From the NCBI GenBank assembly GCA_050949565.1, contig JBMNFY010000017.1, positions 1,908,442 through 1,972,441 of the forward strand: a DNA stretch of 64,000 bases, in the 5' to 3' direction. The notes under the pieces were generated by a model. The model worked only from the letters and a program-made list of their open reading frames with translations, ran no database searches and was not told the origin of the DNA. Positions 3,684 to 40,461 of this stretch are shown here, piece after piece. The translations under genes and the position numbers were made by a program. Position 1 is the stretch's first letter. Each line of letters starts with the position of its first letter. Source of the stretch: Kiritimatiellia bacterium (GTDB lineage Bacteria > Verrucomicrobiota > Kiritimatiellia > RFP12 > UBA1067).

Positions 3684-3690
3684 ACAACGA

Positions 3691-12048: not shown

Positions 12049-12074
12049 CGTGTACGAAAGAAAGGCAGAGAGAG

Positions 12075-15184: not shown

Positions 15185-15211
15185 GCTGTTTAAACGATGT
15201 TGTAAACGTAT

Positions 15212-15312
15212 GAGGCCCTTGTAAAACCCCCTCGTGGCATGGGCGTCTCGCCCATGAAACACGGGCAGGATGCCCGTGCCACGTCTGCAAACAAAGGGTT
15301 TTTAAGAGCCTC
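15212..15312. repeat. REP-doublet MITE-like element (duplicated copy)
   Basis: Matches 11948-12048 at offset 3264. Confidence 0.8.
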
Positions 15313-15338
15313 CGTGTACGAAAGAAAGGCAGAGAGAG

Positions 15339-19357: not shown

Positions 19358-20131
19358 TCACTGTTTCCTCTTACGGAGACCACGCCACAGGAGGAGGGCG
19401 GCGAGAACGCCCCCGCCGACAGCGAGCAGAACGGCAGGGCAAAGAGGACATGAGGGAAGAGAATCCGCTGATGGATTTTCTGCAACGGGCGGGGCATTGG
19501 TATGCGCTGGAGTTGCGGGAACGGTCAACTTTTGCGATACGGCCTTGACAGAAGAAGTGATGGCGACAGATGTGAGAGGCGGCTCTGAATCAGTCGGAGA
19601 AGCGTTCAAAAGTTTCCATATCCCTTTGCGTTCAGCCTGAGCTTGCCTCTGAGCCTCTTCCATTTTTTGTACGGAAATACCCCTCGACATAAAACGTCCC
19701 GTCCACCTTGCCATCCCGTCTCTTACCATAATGAGATTGACGCAATCGTCATCGGTGTATCGCATATCATTATCTCTCATAAAAAAGATGCAAGCACCGT
19801 GTGATACGTCGCCCTCCAACTCCTCAAGAAAATGTAATTTTTTGTTCAAAACCAGTTCGCTCAGCCGCTTGCATGATTCGACACCGAAAGAGTTTGTTCG
19901 TTCTGGTGCCACAATACCATCAAGTCGGACAATATACGGGGGAATCGTGTGTCGCCATCGTCCAAATTGTCGGTCAGCGATGACAACACTGTTTCCATCA
20001 ATGACATTTGTGACAGTTGCGAAATACCCCATACGCGCAACCGCAGGCTGGCAATTAAGAAAACCTAACGTAATCACTACGATCTGCCGTATATGTAGTG
20101 ACACACGAACACGGAACTTGTCTTTTTTCAC
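19358..20131 (-). CDS. Thermonuclease (SNase)-fold protein with degenerate active site and C-terminal membrane anchor
   Basis: VIDGNS, VRLDGIVAPE, VNLIMVRDGMA and AQAERKGIW motifs; hydrophobic helix plus RKRKQ tail. Confidence 0.75.
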   Translation of the reverse strand: MKKDKFRVRVSLHIRQIVVITLGFLNCQPAVARMGYFATVTNVIDGNSVVIADRQFGRWRHTIPPYIVRLDGIVAPERTNSFGVESCKRLSELVLNKKLHFLEELEGDVSHGACIFFMRDNDMRYTDDDCVNLIMVRDGMARWTGRFMSRGISVQKMEEAQRQAQAERKGIWKLLNASPTDSEPPLTSVAITSSVKAVSQKLTVPATPAHTNAPPVAENPSADSLPSCPLCPAVLLAVGGGVLAALLLWRGLRKRKQ

Positions 20132-20255
20132 TCGGTTACTCCTCTCTCAATGCGTCGGTAATCTGACCATCGGCGGCAAATCCATAGCCGTCGCTTCCCA
20201 GCAAGACAATCTCGCCTTTACGAGTGACAAACAGTTGAATTTGACTTTTTCCCCA

Positions 20256-21290
20256 TCATGTGAAATTCGCGCCGACGATCTCGCCCGTGACAGCATCGAC
20301 ATAAATCCACACATATTGGGGATTGTTGCCATGTTCACCCGTCTTCCCGGTATGAACATCCACGGTTACAAAATGGACCATCCAGCACAATCTAGTTTCC
20401 GTTGGAGGTCTATCTCGTATCCAGACAGCACGCTTGGGGTCCAACGCCCAATTAGGAAGATAAACGCGCAAAGCAATTTCCTCCACCGTACGCACCTTGT
20501 AATCCGAATGGCCGTTGCGCGCACGAAACATCGGGGTTTTGAACACGAGAGGTGCGGCCCGTTCGGCTTTTGTGAGCGCCTCTTCGCGTGTAAGCTTCAC
20601 ATCAGTTGACTTGGGAAGAGGCCAATAGTCTTGCATGTGAAATCGCAGGAACCCATATCGTTCGTTGAAGATAACACTGACAAACTGAACATACGGCTCC
20701 ATTACCGTATCGTATGCGTGTCCGCCAGCCGTTGGCTCCCATGTAATAGTCCAAGAATGCTTATAATAAGGGTCGTTGAAAATACAGGAGGTCAGTATCA
20801 CGTTGCTCGACAGTGGTATACCGATGAGTTCCAGATAACGTTTGGCCTCACGAACCGCCTCTGTCATCGTCAACGTCGGAACTTTTTGAACTGCGTTTGT
20901 ATTCACAAAGTCAATCAGTTTTTTGTTATATATCCGGCATGGGGTCAGTGTGTGCCGGTTGAATGAAAGATTGAGTTGGCCCTCTGCGGTTACGGTCTCG
21001 CCCTCATAATCAGAACGTATCTCATATCCGCTGGGAGCGCCTCCACCCCGGAACGGCTGCCGGTATTCTTCGTAACCCGGAACATTGGTAGACACCAGTT
21101 TGGATGCATATATCCGATAGAGGTTGGTGACGGCGGCCCAATCCGTTTGTTGCCAGGCACGTTTTTCAGAAGCACAGGCAGCCTTTTCTTGTGCACGCAC
21201 ACGGGAAAATGACAGCACCGATAAAATAGCGAAAACAGAAATGAATGAGAGTGATATGACGCAAGAGGCGAAAAGAACATTTGATTTCAT
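20256..21290 (-). CDS. Hypothetical exported protein with PepSY-like C-terminus
   Basis: 344-aa lower-GC ORF with RBS AAAGGAG, N-terminal hydrophobic helix, TREEAL..A and YVDAVTGEIVG motifs. Confidence 0.65.
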   Translation of the reverse strand: MKSNVLFASCVISLSFISVFAILSVLSFSRVRAQEKAACASEKRAWQQTDWAAVTNLYRIYASKLVSTNVPGYEEYRQPFRGGGAPSGYEIRSDYEGETVTAEGQLNLSFNRHTLTPCRIYNKKLIDFVNTNAVQKVPTLTMTEAVREAKRYLELIGIPLSSNVILTSCIFNDPYYKHSWTITWEPTAGGHAYDTVMEPYVQFVSVIFNERYGFLRFHMQDYWPLPKSTDVKLTREEALTKAERAAPLVFKTPMFRARNGHSDYKVRTVEEIALRVYLPNWALDPKRAVWIRDRPPTETRLCWMVHFVTVDVHTGKTGEHGNNPQYVWIYVDAVTGEIVGANFT

Positions 21291-21413
21291 TGTCCATTCA
21301 CTCCTTTCCGATCATCAACGTCGCCGAAGAGGCGCACGCGTAGCACCGTGAACGCATTAGCCACGCGATGGATATGATCGTTCTTGCCCGTCCACTCCTC
21401 TCCAAGGAAGAGC

Positions 21414-22286
21414 CTATTTGCCATCGCACCCGCGCAGTCTGCGTTCCCATTCGGGCACCTCGTCCCTGTGCTTGTAGAACGAGCGCAATGTCTTTTCTGA
21501 CATCCCGCCGGGCGGTTGATTCGTTTTCATGATCGCCAAGAAATCCGCCTCGTCCTTCGCCCCGCGCATGGCTGCGGCAAGCGGCAGGAATATCTGCTGA
21601 GCCCCGCCCCACAAGCCGGAGCGGCTCGGCCCACCGCCTTCCAGCATGTAATAATCCCCGTTCGACAGGCCCCTCACGAAGATTTCAGCGGTCTTATCAA
21701 TGAACGACTCGGCCTGCTCTTTTGTAATGTTCAATTCACCTCGGGGGGGAGGGGGGGAAATATTATACCGTTCCCCATCTATCCAGATCAAAGTAACACG
21801 CCTGGGGTCCTGCGGGTCGGGTTTTGCCTCTTTAACGCATGGAAGCCCTTTATAGATATTGGCCATCATTTCATTCCCAACAAGATCTCCATGTTTAGAC
21901 ACTAGATATTGCCGAGTATCTGAAATATATGCGATATAATCTTTGTCATATGGCGTGGTATTAGTCGTAATGGTCGACGGTATCGAGGGCATTTTTTTCG
22001 GTGGTGGCGGCGTCGTTTTCTTTCTCGGGGGCCATTGGAGTGCCCAGACGATCTGGTGATTGTTAACAAAGACTAGACCCTCCTTGCGCGAAACGACATA
22101 AGGCGGAGGAATGTAACGCCCGTCGACAAACAAGACGCCGCTGGAGATCGGTGCCCATTTCCGTTCTCCGATGGACAGGTCATTTGTCCCTCCAGGGCAT
22201 TGACCTTCAGCCCGGACGCACACAACGCTGCCGATGAAACAGCAGACGATGCCCCTGATAAAAACGGTTTGTTTTTTCATAATCAT
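21414..22286 (-). CDS. Signal-peptide paralog family B, member 4 (putative immunity protein)
   Basis: Shares GVLFVDGRYIPPPYVVSR and DEADFL.IMKTNQPPGGMSEK..VPEWE with three neighbours. Confidence 0.75.
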   Translation of the reverse strand: MIMKKQTVFIRGIVCCFIGSVVCVRAEGQCPGGTNDLSIGERKWAPISSGVLFVDGRYIPPPYVVSRKEGLVFVNNHQIVWALQWPPRKKTTPPPPKKMPSIPSTITTNTTPYDKDYIAYISDTRQYLVSKHGDLVGNEMMANIYKGLPCVKEAKPDPQDPRRVTLIWIDGERYNISPPPPRGELNITKEQAESFIDKTAEIFVRGLSNGDYYMLEGGGPSRSGLWGGAQQIFLPLAAAMRGAKDEADFLAIMKTNQPPGGMSEKTLRSFYKHRDEVPEWERRLRGCDGK

Positions 22287-22322
22287 TCCCCATTCTGGCC
22301 ATGCGCCGATCCAAGGAAGAGC

Positions 22323-23192: not shown

Positions 23193-23228
23193 TCCCCATT
23201 CTGGCCATGCGCCGATCCAAGGAAGAGC

Positions 23229-24080: not shown

Positions 24081-24091
24081 AGAGGAAGGAC

Positions 24092-24943: not shown

Positions 24944-24958
24944 GTCGGTAACCTCCGT

Positions 24959-26809
24959 TTAGAAACTCCACTCCTGCCATCCGGCGGGCCATGAGAAAAC
25001 GCGACGGACAAGCGGACGTCCGCCACCCTCGCCCTCATTCAAACACTTGTTCGAATCAGTCCGAAGCCAAATCATGTCGCATGCCGATTTATCGTATCTG
25101 AAGCCGAGACCGCGCTTGCCGACGCCGACACCAAGCCATCTCACATCCGTAATTGCGGTTCCCGCCAGTTGCTGAATTGCCAACGCTGCAGATCCATTAT
25201 CGGAAATGTAGGTGTCGAAAAGGACACACCCCCAGCCTTTTCCTTCGTTCGCGGACGAACCGGGGCCAGGAAACTGACCTATAGGTAACCACGCGTTAGC
25301 AGGAATATGGGCGGGACACAGTGTTGTCCAAGGATTCCCGGACATCGTCACCCCATAACCCGCGTACTCATTACCACCGTTCCATGCAGCCCCCGCCGTC
25401 CGACGCATGCCGTCCCCTTGCTTGCCGTTCATGAACTGGAAGAATGTTTCGTTGACGACGTAGTTTTCGAATGACGATATCGGCACGGTGTAACCGATTC
25501 TCCAGCGCCCTCCGGCACCTTCCTTCACACTGTACATCTGGCCGATAGGAGTGCCTGAATAACATATTGCCCAAACAGTGATCGCTCTATTGGTGTCAAG
25601 CCATGGTTTCCAGTTCGTTCGCATCCATCCGCTAGAAACTCGTGCAAAGTAGCATCCCGGTTGAGCGGGTGAGTTCGTTGTTGGTAGCACACTTCTACAA
25701 CTCATGCCAATGTTTGAGGAGCACCAGTTTTCAATTAATTGTCGCCCCTCTTCGGTATACGGCGCGTAAACTGCGTGATGGTATCCTGGCTCACCATGGG
25801 ATGCTGTCACGCAAACCAAGCCCGCGTTGCGCATATTTAGGTAATTCTCGACCGTGCAGGTGCCAACATCCAAATCCGTGTCACCTGTCTCATCCTCGTA
25901 CCAGACCACCTCAGGCCACCCTTGGCTGGACAATTCCGCCGCAAGATATTCCCCGTCAAGCCAGCCCACGTTGTTATTCGTGTTTGCATTGTTCCTCGTC
26001 TTTAGCGGTGCCCAGATCGCGGCGAAATTACCGCCGCCGGGCGCGTAGGAGGCGGGCGGGATGACGGTAAGGCGGACGCTGTCGCTGGTGAGCGTCTGCC
26101 CGTTCCTGATCGCGGAGTATGCCAGCGACACCGCGCCGGTCGCGACCCCGTCCACCCAGACATGCGCCGGCGGCGTCTCTCCCTGCGACACGTCCCACTC
26201 CACGGGCAACGTGAGGGCGGCGGCGCCCGGCGCCGTGTTCGTCCAGACCCTGACCTGACCGCATCCCGCGGACTGCGCCAGCCGGACCGAACCGGCGAAA
26301 TTGGCGACATCGCCGGACAACCTGACGGGGTAGCGCATCCCCGCGCCTTCCGCCAGCCCGTTCGTGACAGTCAGGAGCAACCCCGGGGCATAATCTTCGT
26401 ACCCGTCCTCGTCGTTGTTATCGGTATCGATCGCGCCGTCATTATTCGAATCAACGTCGATGTCCACACCCCAAGCCGTGATCTCCACCTGCGTCTCGCA
26501 GTCGAAGCGCGCCGCCGCGCCCGCGCCCTGGAACGAGAGGGTGAGCGTGGCGGTGCAGGGGCGGTCGGCCTGGACCTCGAGGGTCTCGGCGGTGGGGCCG
26601 GGCGGGAAGGCGACGGCGTTGCTCTCGCCGCCGCGCACGGCGACGCCCCCGTAGCGCGCGACGATGTTGGACGGGCCGTCGAGGGCGAGCGTGTACGCGC
26701 CGGGCAGCGCGACGTCGTTGAAGACCTTGAGCGGGAATGCGTTGGTCCCCGCCGGGATCAGCCATGTCCGGTCCCAACCCGGCCAAATGTCAGAGATCAG
26801 GCTTTTCAT
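24959..26809 (-). CDS. Orphan C-terminal cassette of the 1282-aa protein family with an alternative tip domain
   Basis: Homology to the large gene starts abruptly at WDRTWLIPAGTNAFPLKVFND (26776 vs 29911). It has no signal peptide, and the lower-GC tip contains ASHG and AICYSG. Confidence 0.75.
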   Translation of the reverse strand: MKSLISDIWPGWDRTWLIPAGTNAFPLKVFNDVALPGAYTLALDGPSNIVARYGGVAVRGGESNAVAFPPGPTAETLEVQADRPCTATLTLSFQGAGAAARFDCETQVEITAWGVDIDVDSNNDGAIDTDNNDEDGYEDYAPGLLLTVTNGLAEGAGMRYPVRLSGDVANFAGSVRLAQSAGCGQVRVWTNTAPGAAALTLPVEWDVSQGETPPAHVWVDGVATGAVSLAYSAIRNGQTLTSDSVRLTVIPPASYAPGGGNFAAIWAPLKTRNNANTNNNVGWLDGEYLAAELSSQGWPEVVWYEDETGDTDLDVGTCTVENYLNMRNAGLVCVTASHGEPGYHHAVYAPYTEEGRQLIENWCSSNIGMSCRSVLPTTNSPAQPGCYFARVSSGWMRTNWKPWLDTNRAITVWAICYSGTPIGQMYSVKEGAGGRWRIGYTVPISSFENYVVNETFFQFMNGKQGDGMRRTAGAAWNGGNEYAGYGVTMSGNPWTTLCPAHIPANAWLPIGQFPGPGSSANEGKGWGCVLFDTYISDNGSAALAIQQLAGTAITDVRWLGVGVGKRGLGFRYDKSACDMIWLRTDSNKCLNEGEGGGRPLVRRVFSWPAGWQEWSF

Positions 26810-27686
26810 TTTTCGGTTCAGGATCAAGCAACTCTCCTTTGGCGGTAAAATCCTTGCGTTTAGCCGTGGGCGTTTTTTCGATCTCCGCCTTGACTGCCTC
26901 AAAGTGCGGGCGGCTGTATTCCGGCCCGGCCTTCACCATCCGATCCGCCACCTTTTCGCGCTGGACGCTGGCTGGATAGCCCTCCAATGTCTCGCACAAA
27001 ACTTGGTCTATCATCTTAACGGTATCACCGGCTTTTTCTTTTTCGACCGATTCTAGTAAGAATTGATGAGCATCATCCAGTCTTGCTTTCGGGTTGTTTT
27101 TTTTCTCCATCCGAACTCTGCGCCCAAAAGTTTCATATAAACTATAGAATTCTCTCGGCGTATGTGTTCCATCGCGTTCAATTTTACGAAGAAACGAAAT
27201 CGCCTCAATTCCGAGCACGTTGACAACACCTCTGGATGCCGTTTCGCGGATATCCCTATCTGCAGAAGTGCTCTTGAGTTCTAAATAGGGAAGCGCAGAT
27301 GGGTCTTTGGTATGGCTCATGAAAGTGAGTAACTTCCGGCAATATCGCGTAAGTTCAGATTTCTCGTCTCGATTGGTTATATTGCCAGACGACAACATTA
27401 CCAATCCTTCCTCTGCAACATTTTTCGCCTCAGTTACCATATCGTGAACCGGTATCCCGTTGTTCTTCGCATACAGAAGAAGCGTGTCATCTGGTCGGGG
27501 TAATCGATAGTCTCTTGGACTTCGCAATAAACTAAGCGCCACCACTGTCCGCAAGTCGTGTTTCCCGTCGTACAGATCCCAATGGTGCACCGTGTTCGTG
27601 ACCGGCCAGCCAGACGGCCAGCCAAACACAGAAGGGGCAAGCAGCGTCGCCACCGCCAGACAGATGTTGCATAGTGACTGTTTCAT
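26790..27686 (-). CDS. Signal-peptide helical paralog family A, member 2, copy 1 (putative immunity protein)
   Basis: Paralog of the adjacent 292-aa gene; HEAT-like KDPSALPYLE..IRETA segment. Confidence 0.75.
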   Translation of the reverse strand: MKQSLCNICLAVATLLAPSVFGWPSGWPVTNTVHHWDLYDGKHDLRTVVALSLLRSPRDYRLPRPDDTLLLYAKNNGIPVHDMVTEAKNVAEEGLVMLSSGNITNRDEKSELTRYCRKLLTFMSHTKDPSALPYLELKSTSADRDIRETASRGVVNVLGIEAISFLRKIERDGTHTPREFYSLYETFGRRVRMEKKNNPKARLDDAHQFLLESVEKEKAGDTVKMIDQVLCETLEGYPASVQREKVADRMVKAGPEYSRPHFEAVKAEIEKTPTAKRKDFTAKGELLDPEPKNEKPDL

Positions 27687-28561
27687 TGTTCCGCTCGTTC
27701 AGGATCAAGCAACTCTCCTTTGGCGGCAAAATCCTTGCGTTTAGCCGTGGGCGTTTTTTCGATCTCCGCCTTGACTGCCTCAAAATGCGGGCGGCTGTAT
27801 TCCGGCCCGGCCTTCACCATCCGATCCGCCACCTTTTCGCGCTGGACGCTGGCTGAATATCCCTCCAATGTCTCGCACAAAACACGATCTAACATTTTGA
27901 CGGTACTCCCCTCCTCTTCTTCTATCAATTCCAGTAAGAAAGCATAGGCATCGTCCACTTTCGCTTTCGGATTGCTTGCCTTCTCCATCCGAATCTTATA
28001 TCCAAATGATTCATATAGACTATATAAATCCCCTCTATACAATTCGTTTTTTTTGAAGTCACGAAGAAAACCAATAGCATTCGATCCCAAAATGTTCACA
28101 ATCATATTCGCTGCAGTCCGACGGATGTCATCATTGGCGGATGTGCTTTTTAACTCCAAATATGGAAGGGCAGACGGGTCTTTTGTATACCCCATGAATC
28201 CTATGAGTATCCCGCAATATCGCATGACCGCCGCAGCTTCTTCTTTGTTTGTGAGGCTTCCCGACTCCAGCATGGCAAACCCCTCCTCAGCGACCGTTTG
28301 GGCCACGCCCACCATATTGCTGACCGGTATCCTGTGTTCTTTCGCGTATGCGAGCAACATGTCCTCTGTTCGCGGCAACCGGTAATCTCGGGGAATTCGC
28401 ATCAGTCCCACGGCCACCACTGTCCGCAAGTCATGTTTCCCGTCATATACCTCCCAGTGCGGCACCGTATTTGTGACCGGCCAGCCGGACGGCCATCCAA
28501 ACACAGAAGAGGCAAGCAGCGTCGCCACCGCCAACCAGATATTGCACACTAACTGTTTCAT
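27683..28561 (-). CDS. Signal-peptide helical paralog family A, member 1, copy 1 (putative cognate immunity protein)
   Basis: RBS AAAGGAG; directly follows the HExxH gene; lower GC. Confidence 0.75.
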   Translation of the reverse strand: MKQLVCNIWLAVATLLASSVFGWPSGWPVTNTVPHWEVYDGKHDLRTVVAVGLMRIPRDYRLPRTEDMLLAYAKEHRIPVSNMVGVAQTVAEEGFAMLESGSLTNKEEAAAVMRYCGILIGFMGYTKDPSALPYLELKSTSANDDIRRTAANMIVNILGSNAIGFLRDFKKNELYRGDLYSLYESFGYKIRMEKASNPKAKVDDAYAFLLELIEEEEGSTVKMLDRVLCETLEGYSASVQREKVADRMVKAGPEYSRPHFEAVKAEIEKTPTAKRKDFAAKGELLDPERAEQ

Positions 28562-28576
28562 TCTTTCACTCCTTTC

Positions 28577-31500
28577 TCATTGATGGCAGGGCTGCCGATT
28601 GCCCATGCTGTTCAACCCGACGGGAGCCAAACTTTGCTCCCAAACATCGATTACGACATCCCCTTCGAAAAGAGGCGGCAGGCGATCAAACCATGTGCCG
28701 TAGACCGACCCCAGAGGGATGTCGCATGTCGTCGTGATGGTGGGGTCCTCATAGCCCATCATCAACAACCGGTAGGTGATCAAATATGCCTGTAGCAAAT
28801 CAGGGGGGTAATAACCCGCGCCCCAGTCCTGCGGGAGACGATCCGCCGTGACGGGGCCTGTGACAACTCTTTCAAGTGTGTTCGACACCGACCGATACGG
28901 ATAAATATCCAGCAGTCCGCACGCATGGCCGATCTCGTGGGCCAAAGTTCTCTCCGAGATGCCGCTCCTCAAAACAATCCCCTGCGTGTCTTCAAGTCCC
29001 AAAAGACTCCCAGCTATAGTCCCATCAATATAAAAATCTCGGACAAAATAAAGCTCTATGCCGCCTGTCGCCGTCTCGATATTGCGTATGGACTCCAATT
29101 CGCCGGACCAGCCATTGGTAAAGTCAATATCCAGCCATTCCTCGCAATTCGTATATTGAATCGCTCCGTTCACATGGAAGGTCATGGCGCACTGCTTGAA
29201 GATCGCGTTCACCCCGCTCAGCAGTTCCTGCACGCGGCCTTCGGAGCAAGCCGCGTTATTCCCGTTATCATCCCGGACAATCCACACCGTGACCGGAACC
29301 GTTTTAGGATCGAGCACCATCCCCGCAATGCAGGGATTGGCGGGGAAGTTCACCCCTTCCAGCTCAACCTCGAGCTTGAACGCGCCCTCAGTGCTTCCGC
29401 CCTTCACGGCGACCAGACGCCCCGTGTTGCGGTTCCCAACAAACGACACATCCCCGGAGACCACGCTCCAAGATATTTTGTCGTCAGGGAAAAGAGAGGT
29501 TGGCTCGACATTGATCTTGTAATATCCGATCCCGCCGGTCGCTATGCCGCAGGGATTATAGACTTCCGGACTGTTTTCAGTTGTAACGGGTTCCAAGGTG
29601 ACCGCAACCGCCGTCATCTTCAGCAAGGCCTCGCAGGAAATGCCCGACGCCGCGCCCGTACCCTGGAATGAGAGCGTCAGGACGGCCTCACCGGGACCCT
29701 CCGCCTGAACCAGGACGGTCTCCAGCGTGGAGCCGGGCGGAAAGGCGACGGCGTTGCTCTCGCCGCCGCGGACGGTGACGCCCCCGTAGCGCGCGACGAT
29801 GTTGGACGGGCCGTCGAGGGCGAGCGTGTACGCGCCGGGCAGCGCGGCGTCGTTGAAGACCTTGAGCGGGAATGCGTTGGTCCCCGCCGGGATCAGCCAT
29901 GTCCGGTCCCAGTCCGCCGCCAGCGCGGCGTCGTCGCCGGGGCCGGCCGCCCCGTCGAGGTCCACGTCCGGCTGGAGGTCGAGCGAGAGGACCGTGAAGC
30001 GGTCGGTCTCGTAAAAGGTCATGGGCAGGTGCGGGTCGAACCGCGAGAAGCGCACGGAGCGGTCGTAGGGCGCCGCGCTGGGCGTGAGCCCGGTGACGGT
30101 GACCACGCCCGGCGAATCGGGCAGCGGCCCGGGCGCGAGCGGGACGGCCCCGCCGCCGTCGAAGGACCTGAACGCGGCCGCCAGCCCGGCCGCGCCCTCG
30201 TAGACGACGGGGCCGGAGCCCTGTCCACCGCCGCCGCCGGAGTGCGGGTTGTGCTCCGGGCAGGAACAGCAGCCGCTGTGGTCGAATATGGTGCCGCCCG
30301 TTTCCTGGCGCCGGTGCCAGTGGTCGACCGCCCACTGGCAGTGGCTGCAGCCGGGGCCGTGGCCGCAGTCGTCGGGATCGTTCGGGGGCGTTCCCTGTCC
30401 GCCATGCCCCGACGGCCAGGGGCTGAGCGTGGCCCAGCAGTCCGGCCACGCCGCGGGGCGGCGCGGCACCGGCAGCGTGAAAAACGTGTTGGTGCCGTTG
30501 GCAGGGGGGATATAGCCGCGTCCGGCGGCTGGGCAACGTCCTTCGTCCGCCGGTTTGCCGGTCAGGTCGCACCACCAGCGCGTGAGGCTGTTGGTGGTCA
30601 CATGCCTCTGGCAGTAGCCGCAGGAACTGCACCGGGTCGCGGGCCATTCCGAGCGCAGAGATGACAGGGTGCCGGTGCCGGCCCGGGCGGGGGCGCCCGC
30701 GTCCAGCCCGTCGGGCATGAACGCGACGGAGACCTCCGTCGGCAGTCCGTCGATGTCGGGCCAGACCGTGAACTCGGGCACGTTGGTCACGACGGTCGTG
30801 CCGCCGTAGCTCCAGGCGTATTGCCCGGAGAGGCCCGCCGCGCAGCCGGTCGCGCGGAAGGTGATCGGTTCGCCGTGGAAACAGGCGGCGGCGGGCTCCA
30901 CCGTGAAGAACGGCGCGGCGACGGTGCCTTCCCGGCTGACCGCGTGCGACAGCGGCGGCGGCGGGGGGGCGGGCGGCGGCTGCTGGATGAAGAACCCGGG
31001 GACATCGGACGAGACCGTGTAATCCACCTCGACGCCGTGGCGGGCGCAGAGCCACACGGTCTGGGTCGCCGCCTTGTCCAGCCACAGCGTCCATGATCCG
31101 GGGTCGCGCATGACGAGGGGGATCTCGCCGATCCAGAGCACCGCGCCGGGATCGGCGACGGGGGCGTCCAGCGTGACCGTGACCGCGAACAGGGAGTCGT
31201 CCCAGGGGAATCCCGATGCCTCGCAGGTACCGTTCGTGGGCAGCGCGTGGTGCATGTGGAAGAGCCAGGTGTTGGAACAGCAGTTCAATATCGCGCCGGG
31301 ATCGCCGGGGGAGAGCGGGTCGGGGTCGATGGAGTCGGCCGCGAGGTCGCCGTCGGTGTCGGGGTCGAGGGGGTCCGTGCCGAGGGTCATTTCCACGCCG
31401 TCGTCCGCCCCGTCGCCGTCGCTGTCGGCGCGGCGCGGGTCGGTGCCGTGGATGAGCAGTTCGTCATAGATGGAGAGGCCGTCGCCGTCGTGGTCGTCAA

Positions 31501-32425
31501 TGGCCGGGTCGAGCAGGCCGAAGGCGCGCCAGCACAGCTCAAGGCCATTGGTGAGCGCGGAGGGATCGTTGAGGGCGTAAGCCTCGCCGCCGCCGTTGTG
31601 CAGGGCGCCGATGAAGAGGTTGGTGAAGGCGTGGCCGGGGGATCGGAGCGCGGAGCCGGCCGGTATTTTGTACCGGAAGCGGAAATCGCCGTTTCCGAAG
31701 AGCTCGGACTGGAAGGAGACCGGGCAGTTGGTGTCGCGCCCGGCGTAGAGGTTCTCCCAGGTCAGCAGCAGGCCGCCGGAGGGCGTGGGCGCGTGCCAGA
31801 AGCGCCCCTGCGGCGGCACGGTGCCGAAGCTGCCGTGCAGCGGCGCGAGCAGGCTGGCGTTCGCGGGCACGGAGGAGGGGGAAGGTGTGGACAACGGGTC
31901 ACGGAACGACACCAGCCCCGAGCTGGAGACGTGCAGGCCGTCGATCTGGTTCGTGCCGAGGGTGAAGGACCAGCCGTTTGTCTGCAGCCAGAAGGTGTCC
32001 TCGGCCACGCCGTACACGGTCCACGGCGCGTGGACGATCGCATTGGAGGGCGCGGCACGCCAGGCGGCGGCGTTGGTCGCGGCGGAGACGAGGGCGACCC
32101 CGGCGGCGTACTGGGCGGGGGTGAGCGCACCGGCGCGGGGCGCGCCGGTGCGGTCGTTCAAAGGTTCAAGAGGTTCAAGAGGGACGGCGGAGGTGGCGGG
32201 GGCGGGGGCGGGCTCCGGGGTGCCGGCCGGGACCTTGCGCTTGGAACCGCCGCTGACACAGCACGCGATAAGAAAAATCGCGATGAACACTTGGTCGAAG
32301 CGGGACTGGGCGAGGAAGCGGCGTATCGGGTCGCGGAAAAAGGCACCGCCGGTCTCGCAGATACGGGCGATAAACCACAGCACGAAAGCGATGCAGAGGA
32401 ACCAGAAAAGCATGTTGGGTGTCAT
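28577..32425 (-). CDS. 1282-aa membrane-anchored multidomain protein with DxDGDG repeats and C-terminal zincin-like HExxH domain, copy 1
   Basis: Two N-terminal hydrophobic helices; DHDGDG/DSDGDG/DTDGD repeats; Cys/His-rich middle; TLAHEIGHACGL and downstream LMM. Confidence 0.8.
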   Translation of the reverse strand: MTPNMLFWFLCIAFVLWFIARICETGGAFFRDPIRRFLAQSRFDQVFIAIFLIACCVSGGSKRKVPAGTPEPAPAPATSAVPLEPLEPLNDRTGAPRAGALTPAQYAAGVALVSAATNAAAWRAAPSNAIVHAPWTVYGVAEDTFWLQTNGWSFTLGTNQIDGLHVSSSGLVSFRDPLSTPSPSSVPANASLLAPLHGSFGTVPPQGRFWHAPTPSGGLLLTWENLYAGRDTNCPVSFQSELFGNGDFRFRYKIPAGSALRSPGHAFTNLFIGALHNGGGEAYALNDPSALTNGLELCWRAFGLLDPAIDDHDGDGLSIYDELLIHGTDPRRADSDGDGADDGVEMTLGTDPLDPDTDGDLAADSIDPDPLSPGDPGAILNCCSNTWLFHMHHALPTNGTCEASGFPWDDSLFAVTVTLDAPVADPGAVLWIGEIPLVMRDPGSWTLWLDKAATQTVWLCARHGVEVDYTVSSDVPGFFIQQPPPAPPPPPLSHAVSREGTVAAPFFTVEPAAACFHGEPITFRATGCAAGLSGQYAWSYGGTTVVTNVPEFTVWPDIDGLPTEVSVAFMPDGLDAGAPARAGTGTLSSLRSEWPATRCSSCGYCQRHVTTNSLTRWWCDLTGKPADEGRCPAAGRGYIPPANGTNTFFTLPVPRRPAAWPDCWATLSPWPSGHGGQGTPPNDPDDCGHGPGCSHCQWAVDHWHRRQETGGTIFDHSGCCSCPEHNPHSGGGGGQGSGPVVYEGAAGLAAAFRSFDGGGAVPLAPGPLPDSPGVVTVTGLTPSAAPYDRSVRFSRFDPHLPMTFYETDRFTVLSLDLQPDVDLDGAAGPGDDAALAADWDRTWLIPAGTNAFPLKVFNDAALPGAYTLALDGPSNIVARYGGVTVRGGESNAVAFPPGSTLETVLVQAEGPGEAVLTLSFQGTGAASGISCEALLKMTAVAVTLEPVTTENSPEVYNPCGIATGGIGYYKINVEPTSLFPDDKISWSVVSGDVSFVGNRNTGRLVAVKGGSTEGAFKLEVELEGVNFPANPCIAGMVLDPKTVPVTVWIVRDDNGNNAACSEGRVQELLSGVNAIFKQCAMTFHVNGAIQYTNCEEWLDIDFTNGWSGELESIRNIETATGGIELYFVRDFYIDGTIAGSLLGLEDTQGIVLRSGISERTLAHEIGHACGLLDIYPYRSVSNTLERVVTGPVTADRLPQDWGAGYYPPDLLQAYLITYRLLMMGYEDPTITTTCDIPLGSVYGTWFDRLPPLFEGDVVIDVWEQSLAPVGLNSMGNRQPCHQ

Positions 32426-32470
32426 ATTCGCGTCTCCCCGGCTACTTTAACGATGTTCTTGTAAGCCTCT

Positions 32471-32520
32471 CGTGGCATGGGCGTCCCGCCCATGAACACG
32501 GGCAAGATGCCCGTGCCACG
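32471..32520. repeat. REP doublet core
   Basis: CGTGGCATGGGCGTCCCGCCCATGAACACGGGCAAGATGCCCGTGCCACG. Confidence 0.8.
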
Positions 32521-32555
32521 CCTGCAAACGAGAAGTTCTGCAAAAGCCTCTCCTG

Positions 32556-33155
32556 TCATTTGATGGTGATCCGTGTGGCGTCCGGGGCGGACATGATGGT
32601 GATGCGCTCCTGCGGCGCGTCCGCGCCGCGCGCGGTGACGCGCAGGGTGTCCCATGTTCCGGGGCGCAGCCATTCCGGCAGGGGCGGCTGAGGGAGGCCC
32701 GCGAAGGCGACCGCGCCGTCGCGGTCGGTGAAGGCCGGGGGCAGACAGACACCCGAAGCAGTGACGCGGATGAGGGCGGTGAGCCTCTGCGTGCCGTTGG
32801 ACGAGGCGGCGGGGACGGCGTGACGGGTGCGCAGGCCGCGCGGCGACAGGAACCACCCGCCGCGGTCCCATCCGATGGCGAGGTCGGTCTCGCCAGCGTC
32901 GAGCACGCCGTCCGCCGGGGCGGCGTCGCGGCCCAGGCAGACCTGGACGTGGTTGGAGGGCGTGGCCTCGAAGACAAGCTCAAGACGGAAGACGCGCGGG
33001 CCGTCGGGGCCGACGGCGGGCAGGGCGTGCGTCGCCGACACCTCGCGGTCGGCGGTCGCGGGCTCCGGCAGGCGCGGCGCCTCAAGGGTGGCGGCACCCG
33101 CCGCCAGCGCGGCTGCGGTGATGGCAGTGACTATGGCTGTTACGTTGTGTTTCAT
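32556..33155 (-). CDS. Secreted hypothetical protein, first gene of the operon, copy 1
   Basis: 199 aa with an Ala-rich signal peptide; ends PDATRITIK. Confidence 0.7.
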   Translation of the reverse strand: MKHNVTAIVTAITAAALAAGAATLEAPRLPEPATADREVSATHALPAVGPDGPRVFRLELVFEATPSNHVQVCLGRDAAPADGVLDAGETDLAIGWDRGGWFLSPRGLRTRHAVPAASSNGTQRLTALIRVTASGVCLPPAFTDRDGAVAFAGLPQPPLPEWLRPGTWDTLRVTARGADAPQERITIMSAPDATRITIK

Positions 33156-33515
33156 CTCGTTCCCTTCGCTCGGTTCTCCGGCAGGGAAAAGGCGCGGACC
33201 CCGCTCCGCGCCTCCTACGAGGGACCGCTAAGACCCTTTGGCAAAGCCCGGCGACGAGGCCGCGCCCGATCGGGCGCGTCCCCACGCATCTCGCTTTGCT
33301 GTGAAAACTAGCGGTTGGTTTCGTTTGAAGCGTTATGCGCGAAAGCGCAAAAATCAAATCAGTCTATGGGGTTCGGTTCTCTTCTCGTCCTCCGGTTCTC
33401 GCTCTTCTTGTCCGCCAAGCGGCTCTCGTTCGCATGCGGCTTGTCCACTGCCACCCGGCAACAACGCCGCATTCCGTCGTTGAGTGCATTTTATACTCAC
33501 TGGCAGATCGAACGC

Positions 33516-33755
33516 CTGAACCAGGACGGTCTCCAGCGTGGAGCCGGGCGGAAAGGCGACGGCGTTGCTCTCGCCGCCGCGGACGGTGACGCCCCCGTAC
33601 CGCGCGACGACGTTGGACGGGCCTGCGAGGGCGATCGTGTACACGCCGGGCAGCGCGACGCCGTTGAAGACCGTGAGCGGGAAGGCGTTGGTCCCCGCCG
33701 GGATCAGCCATGTCCGGTCCCAACCCGGCCAAATGTCAGAGATCAGGCTTTTCAT
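33516..33755 (-). pseudogene. Truncated orphan-cassette head cut by the duplication junction
   Basis: WDRTWLIPAGTNAFPLTVFNGVALPGVYTIALAG...TLETVLVQA, then runs into leader sequence. Confidence 0.75.
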
Positions 33756-34632: not shown

Positions 34633-35507
34633 TGTTCCGCTCGTTCAGGATCAAGCAACTCTCCTTTGGCGGCAAAATCCTTGCGTTTAGCCGTGGGCGT
34701 TTTTTCGATCTCCGCCTTGACTGCCTCAAAATGCGGGCGGCTGTATTCCGGCCCGGCCTTCACCATCCGATCCGCCACCTTTTCGCGCTGGACGCTGGCT
34801 GAATATCCCTCCAATGTCTCGCACAAAACACGATCTAACATTTTGACGGTACTCCCCTCCTCTTCTTCTATCAATTCCAGTAAGAAAGCATAGGCATCGT
34901 CCACTTTCGCTTTCGGATTGCTTGCCTTCTCCATCCGAATCTTATATCCAAATGATTCATATAGACTATATAAATCCCCTCTATACAATTCGTTTTTTTT
35001 GAAGTCACGAAGAAAACCAATAGCATTCGATCCCAAAATGTTCACAATCATATTCGCTGCAGTCCGACGGATGTCATCATTGGCGGATGTGCTTTTTAAC
35101 TCCAAATATGGAAGGGCAGACGGGTCTTTTGTATACCCCATGAATCCTATGAGTATCCCGCAATATCGCATGACCGCCGCAGCTTCTTCTTTGTTTGTGA
35201 GGCTTCCCGACTCCAGCATGGCAAACCCCTCCTCAGCGACCGTTTGGGCCACGCCCACCATATTGCTGACCGGTATCCTGTGTTCTTTCGCGTATGCGAG
35301 CAACATGTCCTCTGTTCGCGGCAACCGGTAATCTCGGGGAATTCGCATCAGTCCCACGGCCACCACTGTCCGCAAGTCATGTTTCCCGTCATATACCTCC
35401 CAGTGCGGCACCGTATTTGTGACCGGCCAGCCGGACGGCCATCCAAACACAGAAGAGGCAAGCAGCGTCGCCACCGCCAACCAGATATTGCACACTAACT
35501 GTTTCAT
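34629..35507 (-). CDS. Family A member 1, copy 2
   Basis: Translation matches 27683-28561. Confidence 0.75.
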   Translation of the reverse strand: MKQLVCNIWLAVATLLASSVFGWPSGWPVTNTVPHWEVYDGKHDLRTVVAVGLMRIPRDYRLPRTEDMLLAYAKEHRIPVSNMVGVAQTVAEEGFAMLESGSLTNKEEAAAVMRYCGILIGFMGYTKDPSALPYLELKSTSANDDIRRTAANMIVNILGSNAIGFLRDFKKNELYRGDLYSLYESFGYKIRMEKASNPKAKVDDAYAFLLELIEEEEGSTVKMLDRVLCETLEGYSASVQREKVADRMVKAGPEYSRPHFEAVKAEIEKTPTAKRKDFAAKGELLDPERAEQ

Positions 35508-35522
35508 TCTTTCACTCCTTTC

Positions 35523-38500: not shown

Positions 38501-39371
38501 GCGCGGAGGGATCGTTGAGGGCGTAAGCCTCGCCGCCGCCGTTGTGCAGGGCGCCGATGAAGAGGTTGGTGAAGGCGTGGCCGGGGGATCGGAGCGCGGA
38601 GCCGGCCGGTATTTTGTACCGGAAGCGGAAATCGCCGTTTCCGAAGAGCTCGGACTGGAAGGAGACCGGGCAGTTGGTGTCGCGCCCGGCGTAGAGGTTC
38701 TCCCAGGTCAGCAGCAGGCCGCCGGAGGGCGTGGGCGCGTGCCAGAAGCGCCCCTGCGGCGGCACGGTGCCGAAGCTGCCGTGCAGCGGCGCGAGCAGGC
38801 TGGCGTTCGCGGGCACGGAGGAGGGGGAAGGTGTGGACAACGGGTCACGGAACGACACCAGCCCCGAGCTGGAGACGTGCAGGCCGTCGATCTGGTTCGT
38901 GCCGAGGGTGAAGGACCAGCCGTTTGTCTGCAGCCAGAAGGTGTCCTCGGCCACGCCGTACACGGTCCACGGCGCGTGGACGATCGCATTGGAGGGCGCG
39001 GCACGCCAGGCGGCGGCGTTGGTCGCGGCGGAGACGAGGGCGACCCCGGCGGCGTACTGGGCGGGGGTGAGCGCACCGGCGCGGGGCGCGCCGGTGCGGT
39101 CGTTCAAAGGTTCAAGAGGTTCAAGAGGGACGGCGGAGGTGGCGGGGGCGGGGGCGGGCTCCGGGGTGCCGGCCGGGACCTTGCGCTTGGAACCGCCGCT
39201 GACACAGCACGCGATAAGAAAAATCGCGATGAACACTTGGTCGAAGCGGGACTGGGCGAGGAAGCGGCGTATCGGGTCGCGGAAAAAGGCACCGCCGGTC
39301 TCGCAGATACGGGCGATAAACCACAGCACGAAAGCGATGCAGAGGAACCAGAAAAGCATGTTGGGTGTCAT
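35523..39371 (-). CDS. 1282-aa HExxH-tipped protein, copy 2
   Basis: Translation appears identical to 28577-32425. Confidence 0.8.
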   Translation of the reverse strand: MTPNMLFWFLCIAFVLWFIARICETGGAFFRDPIRRFLAQSRFDQVFIAIFLIACCVSGGSKRKVPAGTPEPAPAPATSAVPLEPLEPLNDRTGAPRAGALTPAQYAAGVALVSAATNAAAWRAAPSNAIVHAPWTVYGVAEDTFWLQTNGWSFTLGTNQIDGLHVSSSGLVSFRDPLSTPSPSSVPANASLLAPLHGSFGTVPPQGRFWHAPTPSGGLLLTWENLYAGRDTNCPVSFQSELFGNGDFRFRYKIPAGSALRSPGHAFTNLFIGALHNGGGEAYALNDPSALTNGLELCWRAFGLLDPAIDDHDGDGLSIYDELLIHGTDPRRADSDGDGADDGVEMTLGTDPLDPDTDGDLAADSIDPDPLSPGDPGAILNCCSNTWLFHMHHALPTNGTCEASGFPWDDSLFAVTVTLDAPVADPGAVLWIGEIPLVMRDPGSWTLWLDKAATQTVWLCARHGVEVDYTVSSDVPGFFIQQPPPAPPPPPLSHAVSREGTVAAPFFTVEPAAACFHGEPITFRATGCAAGLSGQYAWSYGGTTVVTNVPEFTVWPDIDGLPTEVSVAFMPDGLDAGAPARAGTGTLSSLRSEWPATRCSSCGYCQRHVTTNSLTRWWCDLTGKPADEGRCPAAGRGYIPPANGTNTFFTLPVPRRPAAWPDCWATLSPWPSGHGGQGTPPNDPDDCGHGPGCSHCQWAVDHWHRRQETGGTIFDHSGCCSCPEHNPHSGGGGGQGSGPVVYEGAAGLAAAFRSFDGGGAVPLAPGPLPDSPGVVTVTGLTPSAAPYDRSVRFSRFDPHLPMTFYETDRFTVLSLDLQPDVDLDGAAGPGDDAALAADWDRTWLIPAGTNAFPLKVFNDAALPGAYTLALDGPSNIVARYGGVTVRGGESNAVAFPPGSTLETVLVQAEGPGEAVLTLSFQGTGAASGISCEALLKMTAVAVTLEPVTTENSPEVYNPCGIATGGIGYYKINVEPTSLFPDDKISWSVVSGDVSFVGNRNTGRLVAVKGGSTEGAFKLEVELEGVNFPANPCIAGMVLDPKTVPVTVWIVRDDNGNNAACSEGRVQELLSGVNAIFKQCAMTFHVNGAIQYTNCEEWLDIDFTNGWSGELESIRNIETATGGIELYFVRDFYIDGTIAGSLLGLEDTQGIVLRSGISERTLAHEIGHACGLLDIYPYRSVSNTLERVVTGPVTADRLPQDWGAGYYPPDLLQAYLITYRLLMMGYEDPTITTTCDIPLGSVYGTWFDRLPPLFEGDVVIDVWEQSLAPVGLNSMGNRQPCHQ

Positions 39372-39416
39372 ATTCGCGTCTCCCCGGCTACTTTAACGAT
39401 GTTCTTGTAAGCCTCT

Positions 39417-39466
39417 CGTGGCATGGGCGTCCCGCCCATGAACACGGGCAAGATGCCCGTGCCACG
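39417..39466. repeat. REP doublet core (duplicated copy)
   Basis: Same sequence as 32471-32520. Confidence 0.8.
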
Positions 39467-39501
39467 CCTGCAAACGAGAAGTTCTGCAAAAGCCTCTCCT
39501 G

Positions 39502-40101
39502 TCATTTGATGGTGATCCGTGTGGCGTCCGGGGCGGACATGATGGTGATGCGCTCCTGCGGCGCGTCCGCGCCGCGCGCGGTGACGCGCAGGGTGTCCCA
39601 TGTTCCGGGGCGCAGCCATTCCGGCAGGGGCGGCTGAGGGAGGCCCGCGAAGGCGACCGCGCCGTCGCGGTCGGTGAAGGCCGGGGGCAGACAGACACCC
39701 GAAGCAGTGACGCGGATGAGGGCGGTGAGCCTCTGCGTGCCGTTGGACGAGGCGGCGGGGACGGCGTGACGGGTGCGCAGGCCGCGCGGCGACAGGAACC
39801 ACCCGCCGCGGTCCCATCCGATGGCGAGGTCGGTCTCGCCAGCGTCGAGCACGCCGTCCGCCGGGGCGGCGTCGCGGCCCAGGCAGACCTGGACGTGGTT
39901 GGAGGGCGTGGCCTCGAAGACAAGCTCAAGACGGAAGACGCGCGGGCCGTCGGGGCCGACGGCGGGCAGGGCGTGCGTCGCCGACACCTCGCGGTCGGCG
40001 GTCGCGGGCTCCGGCAGGCGCGGCGCCTCAAGGGTGGCGGCACCCGCCGCCAGCGCGGCTGCGGTGATGGCAGTGACTATGGCTGTTACGTTGTGTTTCA
40101 T
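39502..40101 (-). CDS. Secreted hypothetical protein, first gene of the operon, copy 2
   Basis: Translation matches 32556-33155. Confidence 0.7.
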   Translation of the reverse strand: MKHNVTAIVTAITAAALAAGAATLEAPRLPEPATADREVSATHALPAVGPDGPRVFRLELVFEATPSNHVQVCLGRDAAPADGVLDAGETDLAIGWDRGGWFLSPRGLRTRHAVPAASSNGTQRLTALIRVTASGVCLPPAFTDRDGAVAFAGLPQPPLPEWLRPGTWDTLRVTARGADAPQERITIMSAPDATRITIK

Positions 40102-40431
40102 CTCGTTCCCTTCGCTCGGTTCTCCGGCAGGGAAAAGGCGCGGACCCCGCTCCGCGCCTCCTACGAGGGACCGCTAAGACCCTTTGGCAAAGCCCGGCGA
40201 CGAGGCCGCGCCCGATCGGGCGCGTCCCCGTGCACTCCGCTCCTGTTTGAAAATTGACGGTTTTTCGTTTGAAGCGTTCTGCGCGAAAGCGCAAAAATCA
40301 AATCAGTCTATGGGGTTCGGTTCTCTTCTCGTCCTCCGGTTCTCGCTCTTCTTGTCCGCCAAGCGGCTCTCGTTCGCATGCGGCTTGTCCACTGCCACCC
40401 GGCAACAACGCCGCATTCCGTCGTTGAGTGC

Positions 40432-40461
40432 ATTTTATACTCACTGGCAGATCGAACGCAA
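40432..40461 (-). promoter_or_regulatory. Candidate sigma70 promoter of the island operon
   Basis: Minus strand TTGCGT-16 nt-TATAAAAT with an AT-rich upstream region. Confidence 0.45.

Follow-up and report, generated by a model that had tools for sequence, protein, structure and literature searches.

A 64,000-nucleotide window of the draft genome of an uncultured Kiritimatiellia bacterium (GenBank assembly GCA_050949565.1; 4.66 Mb, 21 contigs, 92% complete; the window covers positions 1908442 to 1972441 of contig C17, JBMNFY010000017.1) contains an array of genes, all on the minus strand and running from 40101 down to 19358, that is probably a polymorphic toxin-immunity locus of the Sec-dependent, MafB-like kind, built on an undescribed carrier module. 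Its central product is a putative 1282-aa effector in five parts: a two-helix leader, an all-beta N-terminal domain (NTD), TSP3 repeats, a Cys/His-rich middle region, and a tip module made of an Ig-like domain and a metzincin protease. A 199-aa exported companion (p199) is encoded upstream and two paralogous partner genes (family A) downstream; behind these lie an orphan cassette with a second tip, four genes of a second partner family (family B), and a PepSY-like gene. An earlier note on this DNA had described a single array; every element that it named is present on the minus strand, but it missed a tandem duplication of the 199/1282/292/298 unit, and the true order is unit, cassette stub, the same unit again, and full cassette. 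Its interpretation overall, an effector-immunity system with exchangeable tips, is supported, and its observation is partly confirmed.

The N-terminal part of the effector is constant, and many unrelated C-termini follow it. Within the genome, p199 and effector residues 1 to ~375 recur at four distinct loci with differing C-terminal parts; at the three further loci p199 is 87 to 92% identical and the first ~375 effector residues are 55 to 90% identical to those in the window. One of these paralogues, also on C17, is an 1825-aa open reading frame (ORF) followed directly by two homologs (35 to 42% identical) of the window's PepSY-like gene. A second, on C10 (C10:291787-299147, locus L038), carries the NTD trunk and an RHS part in overlapping frames, with the change of frame near C10:296000-296120; in the second frame the gene continues with RHS repeats (E = 2.5e-17) and a core end of the Rhs type, and the split reflects either a pseudogene or an assembly indel error. 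The third, on C19, is fragmented. Three more distant full-length paralogues end in a metzincin (NTD 36 to 40% identical, tip 32 to 38%). Beyond this genome, an NTD match at E ≤ 1e-20 occurs in 20 of 40 related genomes, and at least 17 NTD genes occur in a single near-complete relative (G029); many encode ~2500 aa with RHS repeats, and all have a common leader and differing ends, with low-GC small genes and orphan RHS-end pieces behind each. Among 1.84 billion representative proteins (clusters at 50% identity), the NTD matches 480 representatives at E ≤ 1e-3 and 220 at E ≤ 1e-10; at no fewer than 480 clusters the family is large, and its phylum has been little studied and is mostly uncultured. 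In the 150 matches listed the NTD lies near the N-terminus, mostly ~90 to 170 residues in; 77 of the 150 reach 700 aa or more, and BLAST sorts the final 220 aa of these 77 into 40 clusters, some of the relatives being possibly truncated metagenome fragments.

What these tails are can be read in part from a Pfam scan of 30 NTD proteins, which found TSP3 in 23, RHS in 5, and, as C-terminal domains, a protein-arginine deiminase (PAD) in 4, a Tae4 amidase in 1 (residues 2367 to 2486 of a 2514-aa protein), and a colicin M catalytic domain in 1 (residues 2199 to 2309 of a 2318-aa protein, behind RHS repeats). The bacterial cell wall is the known target of both Tae4 and colicin M, which reach it from the periplasm. 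The PAD tips (P0051, P0053, P0063, and P0104; E down to 1.2e-34) are of the eukaryote type, and the word deiminase was not found in the available text of the survey of polymorphic toxins by Zhang et al. 2012 (PMC3482391).

The orphan cassette appears to record an exchange of tips. Cassette residues 43 to 149 match trunk residues 839 to 945 (81 of 107 identical, E = 1e-44), after which the two diverge; at the nucleotide level ~210 nt of the block are almost identical before identity decays. The full block begins 13 nt past the stop of the 298-aa gene, and the cassette, which lies inside a listed 647-aa ORF reaching 26902 (24959-26902), has no start of its own; by sequence it is a start-less orphan whose recombination block is common to the full gene. 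Its tip (residues 285 to 647) is also the C-terminus of six full-length proteins elsewhere (1227 to 1613 aa, 31 to 62% identical), one of which (P0096) was also retrieved as an NTD protein by an independent NTD search and another of which (P0185) begins with this genome's own leader type. On two metagenome contigs (L087 and L088), an ORF 83% identical to trunk residues 654 to 945 runs in frame into the cassette tip (94%), and on L087 the fused ORF is followed by two family B genes and then by a 93% homolog of the window's PepSY-like gene, which holds the same position there. Relative to these contigs, the window reads as a metzincin tip and two family A genes inserted at the block, an event that would have left the older tip as a start-less orphan. 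With a tip swap seen between natural populations, the recombination block offers a clean model of cassette exchange. Further metzincin fragments with family A genes lie on C17 and C15. The cassette tip itself is rare, being present in only 2 of the 41 related genomes in which it was sought (this genome and G025), and in G025 the ORF behind it has no likeness to family B at E ≤ 1e-5. The cassette has no match in Pfam, NCBIfam, or PADLOC and no meaningful sequence match in the Protein Data Bank (PDB). H369-G370 and C447 of its tip are invariant in 7 of 7 sequences, and the ESM Atlas returned weak Peptidase_C25 (gingipain) and CHAT leads (scores 0.77 to 0.81, TM score 0.44 to 0.53); a caspase-like (clan CD) cysteine peptidase is a lead only.

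Both tips appear, by linkage, to have a tip-specific gene directly downstream. For the metzincin this is family A: the 292-aa gene begins 16 nt after the stop of the effector and is followed by a 298-aa paralogue (70% identical). Profile searches of the genome found 20 metzincin ORFs and 17 family A ORFs. Behind 10 of the 20 metzincin ORFs a family A ORF starts between -85 and +18 nt from the stop, 2 more have a family A ORF behind them whose called start overlaps, and all 17 family A ORFs adjoin metzincin ORFs; two of these loci, on C14 and C15, have identical scores and may be one locus assembled twice. For the cassette tip it is family B, whose four paralogues in the window are 41 to 75% identical: in 6 of 6 metagenome loci with this tip (58 to 99% identical) a family B gene (50 to 100%) lies directly behind it, and tip and partner diverge together, one pair standing at 58% for the tip and 50 to 54% for the partner. 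Neither family has a match in Pfam, NCBIfam, or PADLOC, and PDB sequence searches with family B and with the PepSY-like protein gave nothing meaningful; the PepSY match of the latter, a 344-aa protein, is below the Pfam cutoff (E = 5.3e-4). By profile, family A is helical and HEAT-like (E = 1e-5 against alphaRep/HEAT chains), with an export-type N-terminus and, in distant paralogues, a C-terminal membrane anchor as well; in sequence and in its position behind a putative toxin gene it resembles HEAT-repeat immunity proteins, although the Imm-HEAT proteins of Zhang et al. 2012 are not described as exported in the portion of that paper available (PMC3482391). Six of the seven partner genes in the window have a hydrophobic N-terminus by a crude test and the seventh is signal-like by eye, and among the first ORFs downstream of G029 NTD genes 11 of 15 have a signal- or lipoprotein-like start by eye, 4 being unclear. 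All partners seen look exported, pointing to the cell envelope as the battlefield.

Structure prediction places the family A protein on the metzincin. The tip module co-folded with the mature 292-aa partner scored 0.76 (runs 0.75, 0.76, and 0.77), compared with 0.00 for the best of three controls; of 80 solved complexes 58 score this high, as do 2 of 110 mismatched pairs, a rough guide here because own alignments were used. The runs have at least 78% of contacts in common, with a predicted local distance difference test score (pLDDT) of at least 84 for the partner. The predicted contacts join partner loop 54 to 60 (MRIPRDY) to H224, D234, and residues 285 to 290 of the tip, which are the first zinc His, the Asp of HExxHxxGxxD, and the stretch just past the Met-turn. 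The model supports, without proving, a role for family A as an inhibitor that plugs the active-site cleft. The locus offers two new candidate protease-inhibitor pairs, the metzincin with a HEAT-like protein and the Cys/His peptidase with family B. Much of what the earlier note had put forward or proposed to check is borne out by these results: a cassette that repeats an internal trunk block and then diverges, trunk homologs that lack one common C-terminus, an architecture of trunk, variable tip, partner, and orphan cassette (seen in the in-frame fusions of L087 and L088 and in the tip-specific partners), downstream families particular to their tips, and a tip that co-folds with its family A partner. 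The extracytoplasmic target that it suggested fits the exported partners and the envelope-acting tips, Tae4 and colicin M, on relatives.

The main rival explanation is that these are secreted or surface proteases for feeding or envelope upkeep, with a partner that shields the producer during export as Inh/AprI does for serralysin, and that no killing is involved. It accounts for the protease and the family A protein: as metzincins go, the tip is an ordinary one of the extracellular type, the model seats the partner in the active-site cleft, and 8 of the 20 metzincin ORFs have no family A neighbor. Relatives in the phylum, moreover, live by polymer degradation. It leaves unexplained the start-less cassettes with a common recombination block, the in-frame exchange of tips between populations, the arrays of two to four partner paralogues, and the presence of the same carrier before RHS cages, Tae4, and colicin M; nor was any glycoside hydrolase or other feeding enzyme found among the 30 NTD proteins scanned. 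We consider this explanation improbable. Several points nevertheless weigh against a toxin-immunity locus. Toxicity, neutralization, and secretion are proposals from sequence and models, and the co-fold score expresses how confident a model is rather than anything measured. The eight metzincin ORFs without a family A gene behind them are one such point, as is the type of the protease, full-size and extracellular (PAPP-A, ulilysin, and ADAM-like); the small Tox-MPTase domains listed for polymorphic toxins in the available portion of PMC3482391 do not include it, and a digestive or processing role is possible. The clan CD assignment of the cassette tip depends on two invariant residues and weak Atlas leads, the topology and cleavage of the leader are read from the sequence, p199 is missing from the upstream DNA examined at 9 of 15 G029 NTD loci, and, with the C10 paralogue split over two frames and the C19 paralogue in pieces, some copies may be dead.

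In the leader of the effector (residues 1 to 62), helix 1 is followed by an Arg-rich loop and by helix 2, which ends in CCVSGG before SK and leads into a low-complexity linker; in nearly all relatives examined upstream of the NTD the same order recurs (a helix, a basic loop, and a helix whose last residues are small, with [ST/P]K behind it). By the positive-inside and -3/-1 rules, helix 2 is probably a signal-sequence core with a signal-peptidase-type site after GG. The NTD (residues ~101 to 310) is all-beta in an AlphaFold2 (AF2) model (pLDDT 85.5) and has no convincing solved relative: the best Foldseek match has E = 0.087, with none at E ≤ 1e-3, and a wide VIA search gave only generic beta-supersandwich domains (glycoside phosphorylases, aldose epimerases, YidC P1) at Z ≤ 5.7, matches that at such Z may reflect just a common structural arrangement. 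The repeats that follow match Pfam TSP3_bac (E = 1.3e-6), with DxDxDG at residues 311, 334, and 354; NCBIfam matches to CglD and MtsD cover the TSP3 part only and fall far below their cutoffs. The middle region (residues 376 to 838) has no sequence match in Pfam, NCBIfam, PADLOC, or PDB, and its CCxCxxH motif is conserved across family alignments. Overall, the effector contains one HExxH (residue 1163), four DxDxDG, and zero YDxxG motifs; Pfam finds TSP3_bac and a subthreshold Reprolysin_3 match (14.6 bits against a cutoff of 22.4), a PDB sequence search with the whole protein gave nothing meaningful, and the YD, FHA, LXG, PAAR, and VgrG signatures that the earlier note did not see are indeed absent from the Pfam and motif scans, as are TPS and MIX-type signatures and, at E ≤ 0.1 in Pfam, any RHS_repeat match.

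The tip module (residues 946 to 1282) is predicted with confidence (AF2 pLDDT 88, predicted template modeling score 0.89) as an Ig-like sandwich followed by a metzincin protease. The Ig-like domain (residues 946 to 1040) matches intimin D0-D1 in Foldseek. For the protease, Foldseek matches include PAPP-A (E = 9.4e-6), ADAM-8, ecarin, mirolysin, and ulilysin, those to PAPP-A, ADAM, mirolysin, and ulilysin with probability 1.00. The zinc site (H1163, E1164, H1167, G1170, and D1173), the Met-turn (M1222), and the modeled fold are those of a metzincin, and none of H224, E225, H228, G231, and M283 (tip numbering) varies among 21 sequences (consensus HEIGHACGLxDIY). Domains of this sort could also belong to adhesins or to effectors aimed at protists or host tissue, with downstream genes that encode unrelated exported proteins. 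TSP3 and Ig-like domains and the neighboring 2180-aa PA14 protein are adhesin-like, and PAD and ADAM-like proteases are best known from eukaryotes. We find such targets very improbable, given the tight and specific linkage of tips and downstream families, the predicted active-site binding, which points to self-protection, the Tae4 and colicin M tips, which act on bacterial cell walls, and the source of the genome, an anaerobic digester community.

The duplication that gives the locus its two units is vouched for by this assembly only. Window positions 26868-33250 equal 33814-40196 at an offset of 6946 bp with 1 mismatch in 6383 nt, located at 27576/34522 within the 298-aa gene. Between the copies stands a truncated cassette head of 209 nt, which runs into a duplicate of the sequence that precedes p199. 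This stub starts 13 nt past the stop of the 298-aa gene, exactly like the full cassette, and is its own variant of the block, partly trunk-like, that changes abruptly after ~209 nt into the p199-upstream copy. No contig bridging the junction (33515/33516) was found in 4 public runs from 4 studies, and the duplication is neither confirmed nor refuted by contigs, since short-read contigs stop at repeats and missing bridges do not settle the matter. The second unit could instead be an assembly artifact or a join of strain variants, the real locus having one unit. In keeping with that, 33513/33515 is bridged in 0 of the 4 runs, contigs reaching the junction diverge (one side into trunk sequence, the other into sequence from 40460 onward), and in the run that covered the locus best 0.94 of the sampled words were present, a share that would fit the absence of the junction words alone. 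We nonetheless judge an artifact rather unlikely: contigs from short reads are expected to break at repeats, one base separates the two copies, the stub at the junction carries a block variant of its own that recurs without a change in a 1030-nt contig of run X1, and a second, older tandem duplication (94 to 100% identical) lies 15 kb away. That older duplication (~8985-15514, offset 3264 bp, 94 to 100% identical per 200-nt bin) holds two GH127-like 663-aa genes (9929-11920 and 13193-15184) flanking a 395-aa minus-strand ORF that has no Pfam family. Within the duplicated unit, a GC-rich hairpin of ~50 nt (32469-32519 and 39415-39465; -54.4 kcal/mol, z = -3.7) reaches a contig depth of 777 to 5404, compared with ~10 to 50 around it, in 4 of 4 public runs, and is by this depth an extremely abundant short repeat.

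Table 1. Features of the putative toxin-immunity locus and its surroundings (window coordinates)
Feature	Position	Strand	Basis or remark
p199 copy 2, 199-aa exported companion gene	39502..40101	-	ORF; identical to copy 1
Effector gene copy 2, 1282 aa	35523..39371	-	Protein 100% identical to copy 1, residues 1-1282
Family A gene copy 2, 292 aa	34629..35507	-	ORF, paralogue comparison
Family A gene copy 2, 298 aa	33736..34632	-	99.66% identity to copy 1, one residue differs
Truncated cassette head, recombination block alone	33514..33722	-	95% identical to trunk block 29702-29911
Copy of noncoding region upstream of p199, with p199 copy 1 start	33100..33515	-	96.7% identical to 40046-40459
p199 copy 1	32556..33155	-	ORF; homologs just upstream of NTD genes in many relatives
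Spacer between p199 and effector, with ~50-nt hairpin repeat	32426..32555	-	Fold energy, contig depth
Effector gene copy 1, 1282 aa	28577-32425	-	ORF
Effector residues 1-62, two-helix leader	32240..32425	-	Sequence; layout common across family
Effector residues 101-310, constant NTD	31496..32125	-	Profile matches, AF2 model
Effector residues 311-375, TSP3-type calcium-binding repeats	31301..31495	-	Pfam TSP3_bac
Effector residues 376-838, Cys/His-rich middle	29912..31300	-	No family match; conserved CCxCxxH
Effector residues 839-945, recombination block common to cassettes	29591..29911	-	Cassette residues 43-149 are 76% identical as protein
Effector residues 946-1040, Ig-like beta sandwich that opens the tip module	29306..29590	-	AF2, Foldseek
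Effector residues 1041-1282, metzincin tip	28580..29305	-	Motif, AF2, Foldseek
Family A gene copy 1, 292 aa, exported HEAT-like, predicted metzincin inhibitor	27683..28561	-	Position, profile, co-fold
Family A gene copy 1, 298 aa, paralogue of 292-aa gene	26790..27686	-	70% identity
Orphan cassette: block, DxDxD/Ig-like region, Cys/His peptidase-like tip	24959..26776	-	Block match, homologs
Family B gene, 283 aa	24092..24943	-	Directly behind cassette tip in 6/6 metagenome loci
Family B gene, 283 aa	23229..24080	-	65% identical to preceding 283-aa gene
Family B gene, 289 aa	22323..23192	-	41-50% identical to 283-aa genes
Family B gene, 290 aa	21414..22286	-	75% identical to 289-aa gene
344-aa exported PepSY-like gene, putative orphan partner of third tip type	20256..21290	-	PepSY match, homologs
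257-aa exported SNase-like nuclease, C-terminal membrane anchor	19358..20131	-	Pfam SNase E 1.7e-9
Release-factor gene beyond low-GC end	17818-18867		
IS-like 1456-bp repeat directly upstream of locus	~40487-41942		At least 9 genome copies, 99-99.6% identical
2180-aa exported PA14-domain protein, upstream of locus	42076-48618	divergent	Weak HpiC1-like match

Base composition follows the proposed division into carrier and exchangeable parts (Table 1). As the earlier note had claimed of trunk and tip, G+C content is 0.70 to 0.745 in the trunk and 0.53 to 0.58 in the HExxH tip; it is 0.455 to 0.52 in the partner genes, tips and partners standing 10 to 20 GC points below the trunk (genome mean, 0.604). 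The last gene of the low-GC island encodes an SNase-like protein with a Pro-rich linker and a C-terminal hydrophobic run (GC 0.50), and its membership in the system is uncertain; the anchor segment also occurs elsewhere, within a C19 ORF and at metagenome locus L087. At the other end, the 395-aa ORF (40504-41691) of the insertion sequence (IS)-like repeat has no Pfam match, and one copy of this repeat adjoins the C19 paralogue locus. No link between the PA14 protein (42076-48618) and the toxin system was found. A stretch of ~90 nt at 11948-12040 occurs in at least 20 places in the genome at 84 to 94% identity, as a short dispersed repeat.

The companion p199 travels with the carrier. It has a hydrophobic N-terminus and no lipobox, matches no family in Pfam, NCBIfam, or PADLOC, and in the ESM Atlas, which has no structure of it, falls only in unnamed Kiritimatiellota clusters. 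In many relatives a homolog, with identity down to ~30%, is usually the gene immediately before the NTD gene in the same orientation, and p199 is present in 20 of 20 relatives with an NTD match at E ≤ 1e-20 and in 5 of 20 others, a comparison whose threshold was picked after seeing the data and whose related genomes are not independent. Its absence from G029 flanks means that it is therefore not obligatory in cis. On C15, a single ORF (C15:77524-78951) fuses a p199-like domain (31% identical) to an Ig-like domain and a metzincin tip, followed by a family A gene and then by another metzincin fragment.

Most known polymorphic toxins come from Proteobacteria, Firmicutes, and Bacteroidota and rely for delivery on type V, VI, or VII secretion systems (T5SS, T6SS, T7SS) or on Maf. 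Here, the T6SS and contractile-injection markers TssC, PAAR, and sheath (PF05943, PF05488, and PF04984) were not found in the 92%-complete genome, and a T6SS or injection-machine route is therefore unlikely, although at this completeness a marker could have been missed. The possibility that the N-terminal helices and the upstream gene are of the prePAAR/Eag type was dropped, there being no PAAR, no T6SS, and an export-type N-terminus on p199. By sequence searches, the leader/NTD/TSP3 carrier, p199, the naked non-RHS trunk, and families A and B appear to match no described family. An undescribed carrier and companion with no T6SS marker point to an unstudied mode of toxin export and delivery across two membranes. 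The earlier note had gone further and suggested a new delivery class for the trunk: the carrier and p199 do match no described family, but the system does not stand apart from Rhs, because paralogues and relatives have the same module before RHS repeats. The new part is the N-terminal carrier with p199, and the label of a new delivery class is an inference. More tentatively, and with some doubt on our part, leader, NTD, and TSP3 repeats together with p199 may form an unrecognized delivery route that needs neither T6SS nor T5SS and carries RHS-caged or naked envelope-attacking enzymes (metzincin, Cys/His peptidase, arginine deiminase, Tae4, and colicin M) from a diderm producer into the periplasm of rivals, with p199 acting like MafA in export at the outer membrane and the NTD as a receptor-binding or translocation element; such a route would be widespread in Kiritimatiellia and Lentisphaerae-labeled genomes. 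Literature searches, with most subscription journals outside their reach, found nothing on polymorphic toxins in Kiritimatiell*, nothing linking Kiritimatiellaeota with Rhs, no system combining a polymorphic toxin with a metzincin by title, and, for Rhs, Verrucomicrobia, polymorphic toxins, and immunity, only Zhang et al. 2012 as relevant.

The toxin-immunity reading suggests the following mechanism. A constant carrier (leader ending in GG before SK, beta-sandwich NTD, TSP3 repeats, and Cys/His-rich middle) would bear an exchangeable tip module, at present the Ig-like domain with the metzincin. The leader would take the effector through Sec, with helix 2 as signal sequence, and p199 may help it across or onto the outer membrane, by analogy with MafA, an outer-membrane protein required for MafB secretion (PMC7738311). 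The NTD and TSP3 part would bind the target cell, and the tip would act in a rival's periplasm or on its surface while exported partners protect kin; the HEAT-like 292- and 298-aa proteins would plug the protease cleft and shield the producer's own envelope. The Cys/His peptidase-like tip would be a displaced older tip with four copies of its own exported partner family, and the PepSY-like gene the orphan partner of a third tip type. New tips would come in by recombination in the 107-aa block, as in the orphan arrays of contact-dependent inhibition (CDI), Rhs, and Maf systems.

Among known systems, the Maf islands of Neisseria (mafA-mafB-mafI with orphan mafB-CT/mafI) have the same order: small exported companion, toxin, immunity, and orphan cassettes. 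MafB likewise has a leader, a lineage-specific constant N-terminal domain, and a variable C-terminus (PMC3482391); the same survey lists tips of the metallopeptidase and caspase kinds, immunity proteins of the HEAT type, and "lineage-specific N-terminal domains," MAFB-N among them. The likeness stops at gene order and logic: the sequences are unrelated, and neither MAFB-N/DUF1020 nor the MafA family was matched in Pfam. Compared with MafB, the effector here is 4 to 8 times larger, with a two-helix leader, TSP3 repeats, and an RHS cage in relatives; the partners are exported whereas those of Maf are cytoplasmic, and p199 has no lipobox. Sec-dependent ("T2SS") Rhs/YD toxins are listed for Verrucomicrobia by Zhang et al. 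2012 (PMC3482391), and the relatives and one paralogue here have RHS repeats behind the same N-terminal module, with similar variable tips, downstream small genes, and orphan RHS-end cassettes. The effector in the window differs in having no YD repeat and a tip that sits naked on an Ig-like domain, and in the available text of Zhang et al. TSP3 or thrombospondin was not found and the leader, NTD, and p199 are not named.

CDI systems (CdiB-CdiA-CdiI) are alike in the conserved pre-tip sequence that marks the exchange point and, in their orphan cdiA-CT/cdiI pairs, in start-less displaced tips kept downstream with immunity genes. In contrast to CDI, the locus has no two-partner secretion (TPS), FHA, or VENN domain (Pfam, E ≤ 0.1) and no CdiB-type neighbor, and its tips are proposed to act outside the cytoplasm. 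Periplasmic T6SS pairs (Tae4-Tai4) and colicin M share envelope attack and exported immunity, and the same domains occur as tips on NTD proteins, but no TssC, PAAR, or sheath gene was found in the 92%-complete genome and the carrier is unrelated. Serralysin-type metzincins (AprA with AprI or Inh) also combine a metzincin with an adjacent exported active-site blocker, here predicted only; the partner in this locus is a HEAT-like helical repeat of ~270 residues rather than a small beta-barrel, no features of RTX or type I secretion were seen, and the pair is a mobile cassette. Set beside all of these, the locus is distinctive in its full-size metzincin as a cassette tip and in its consistently exported partners.

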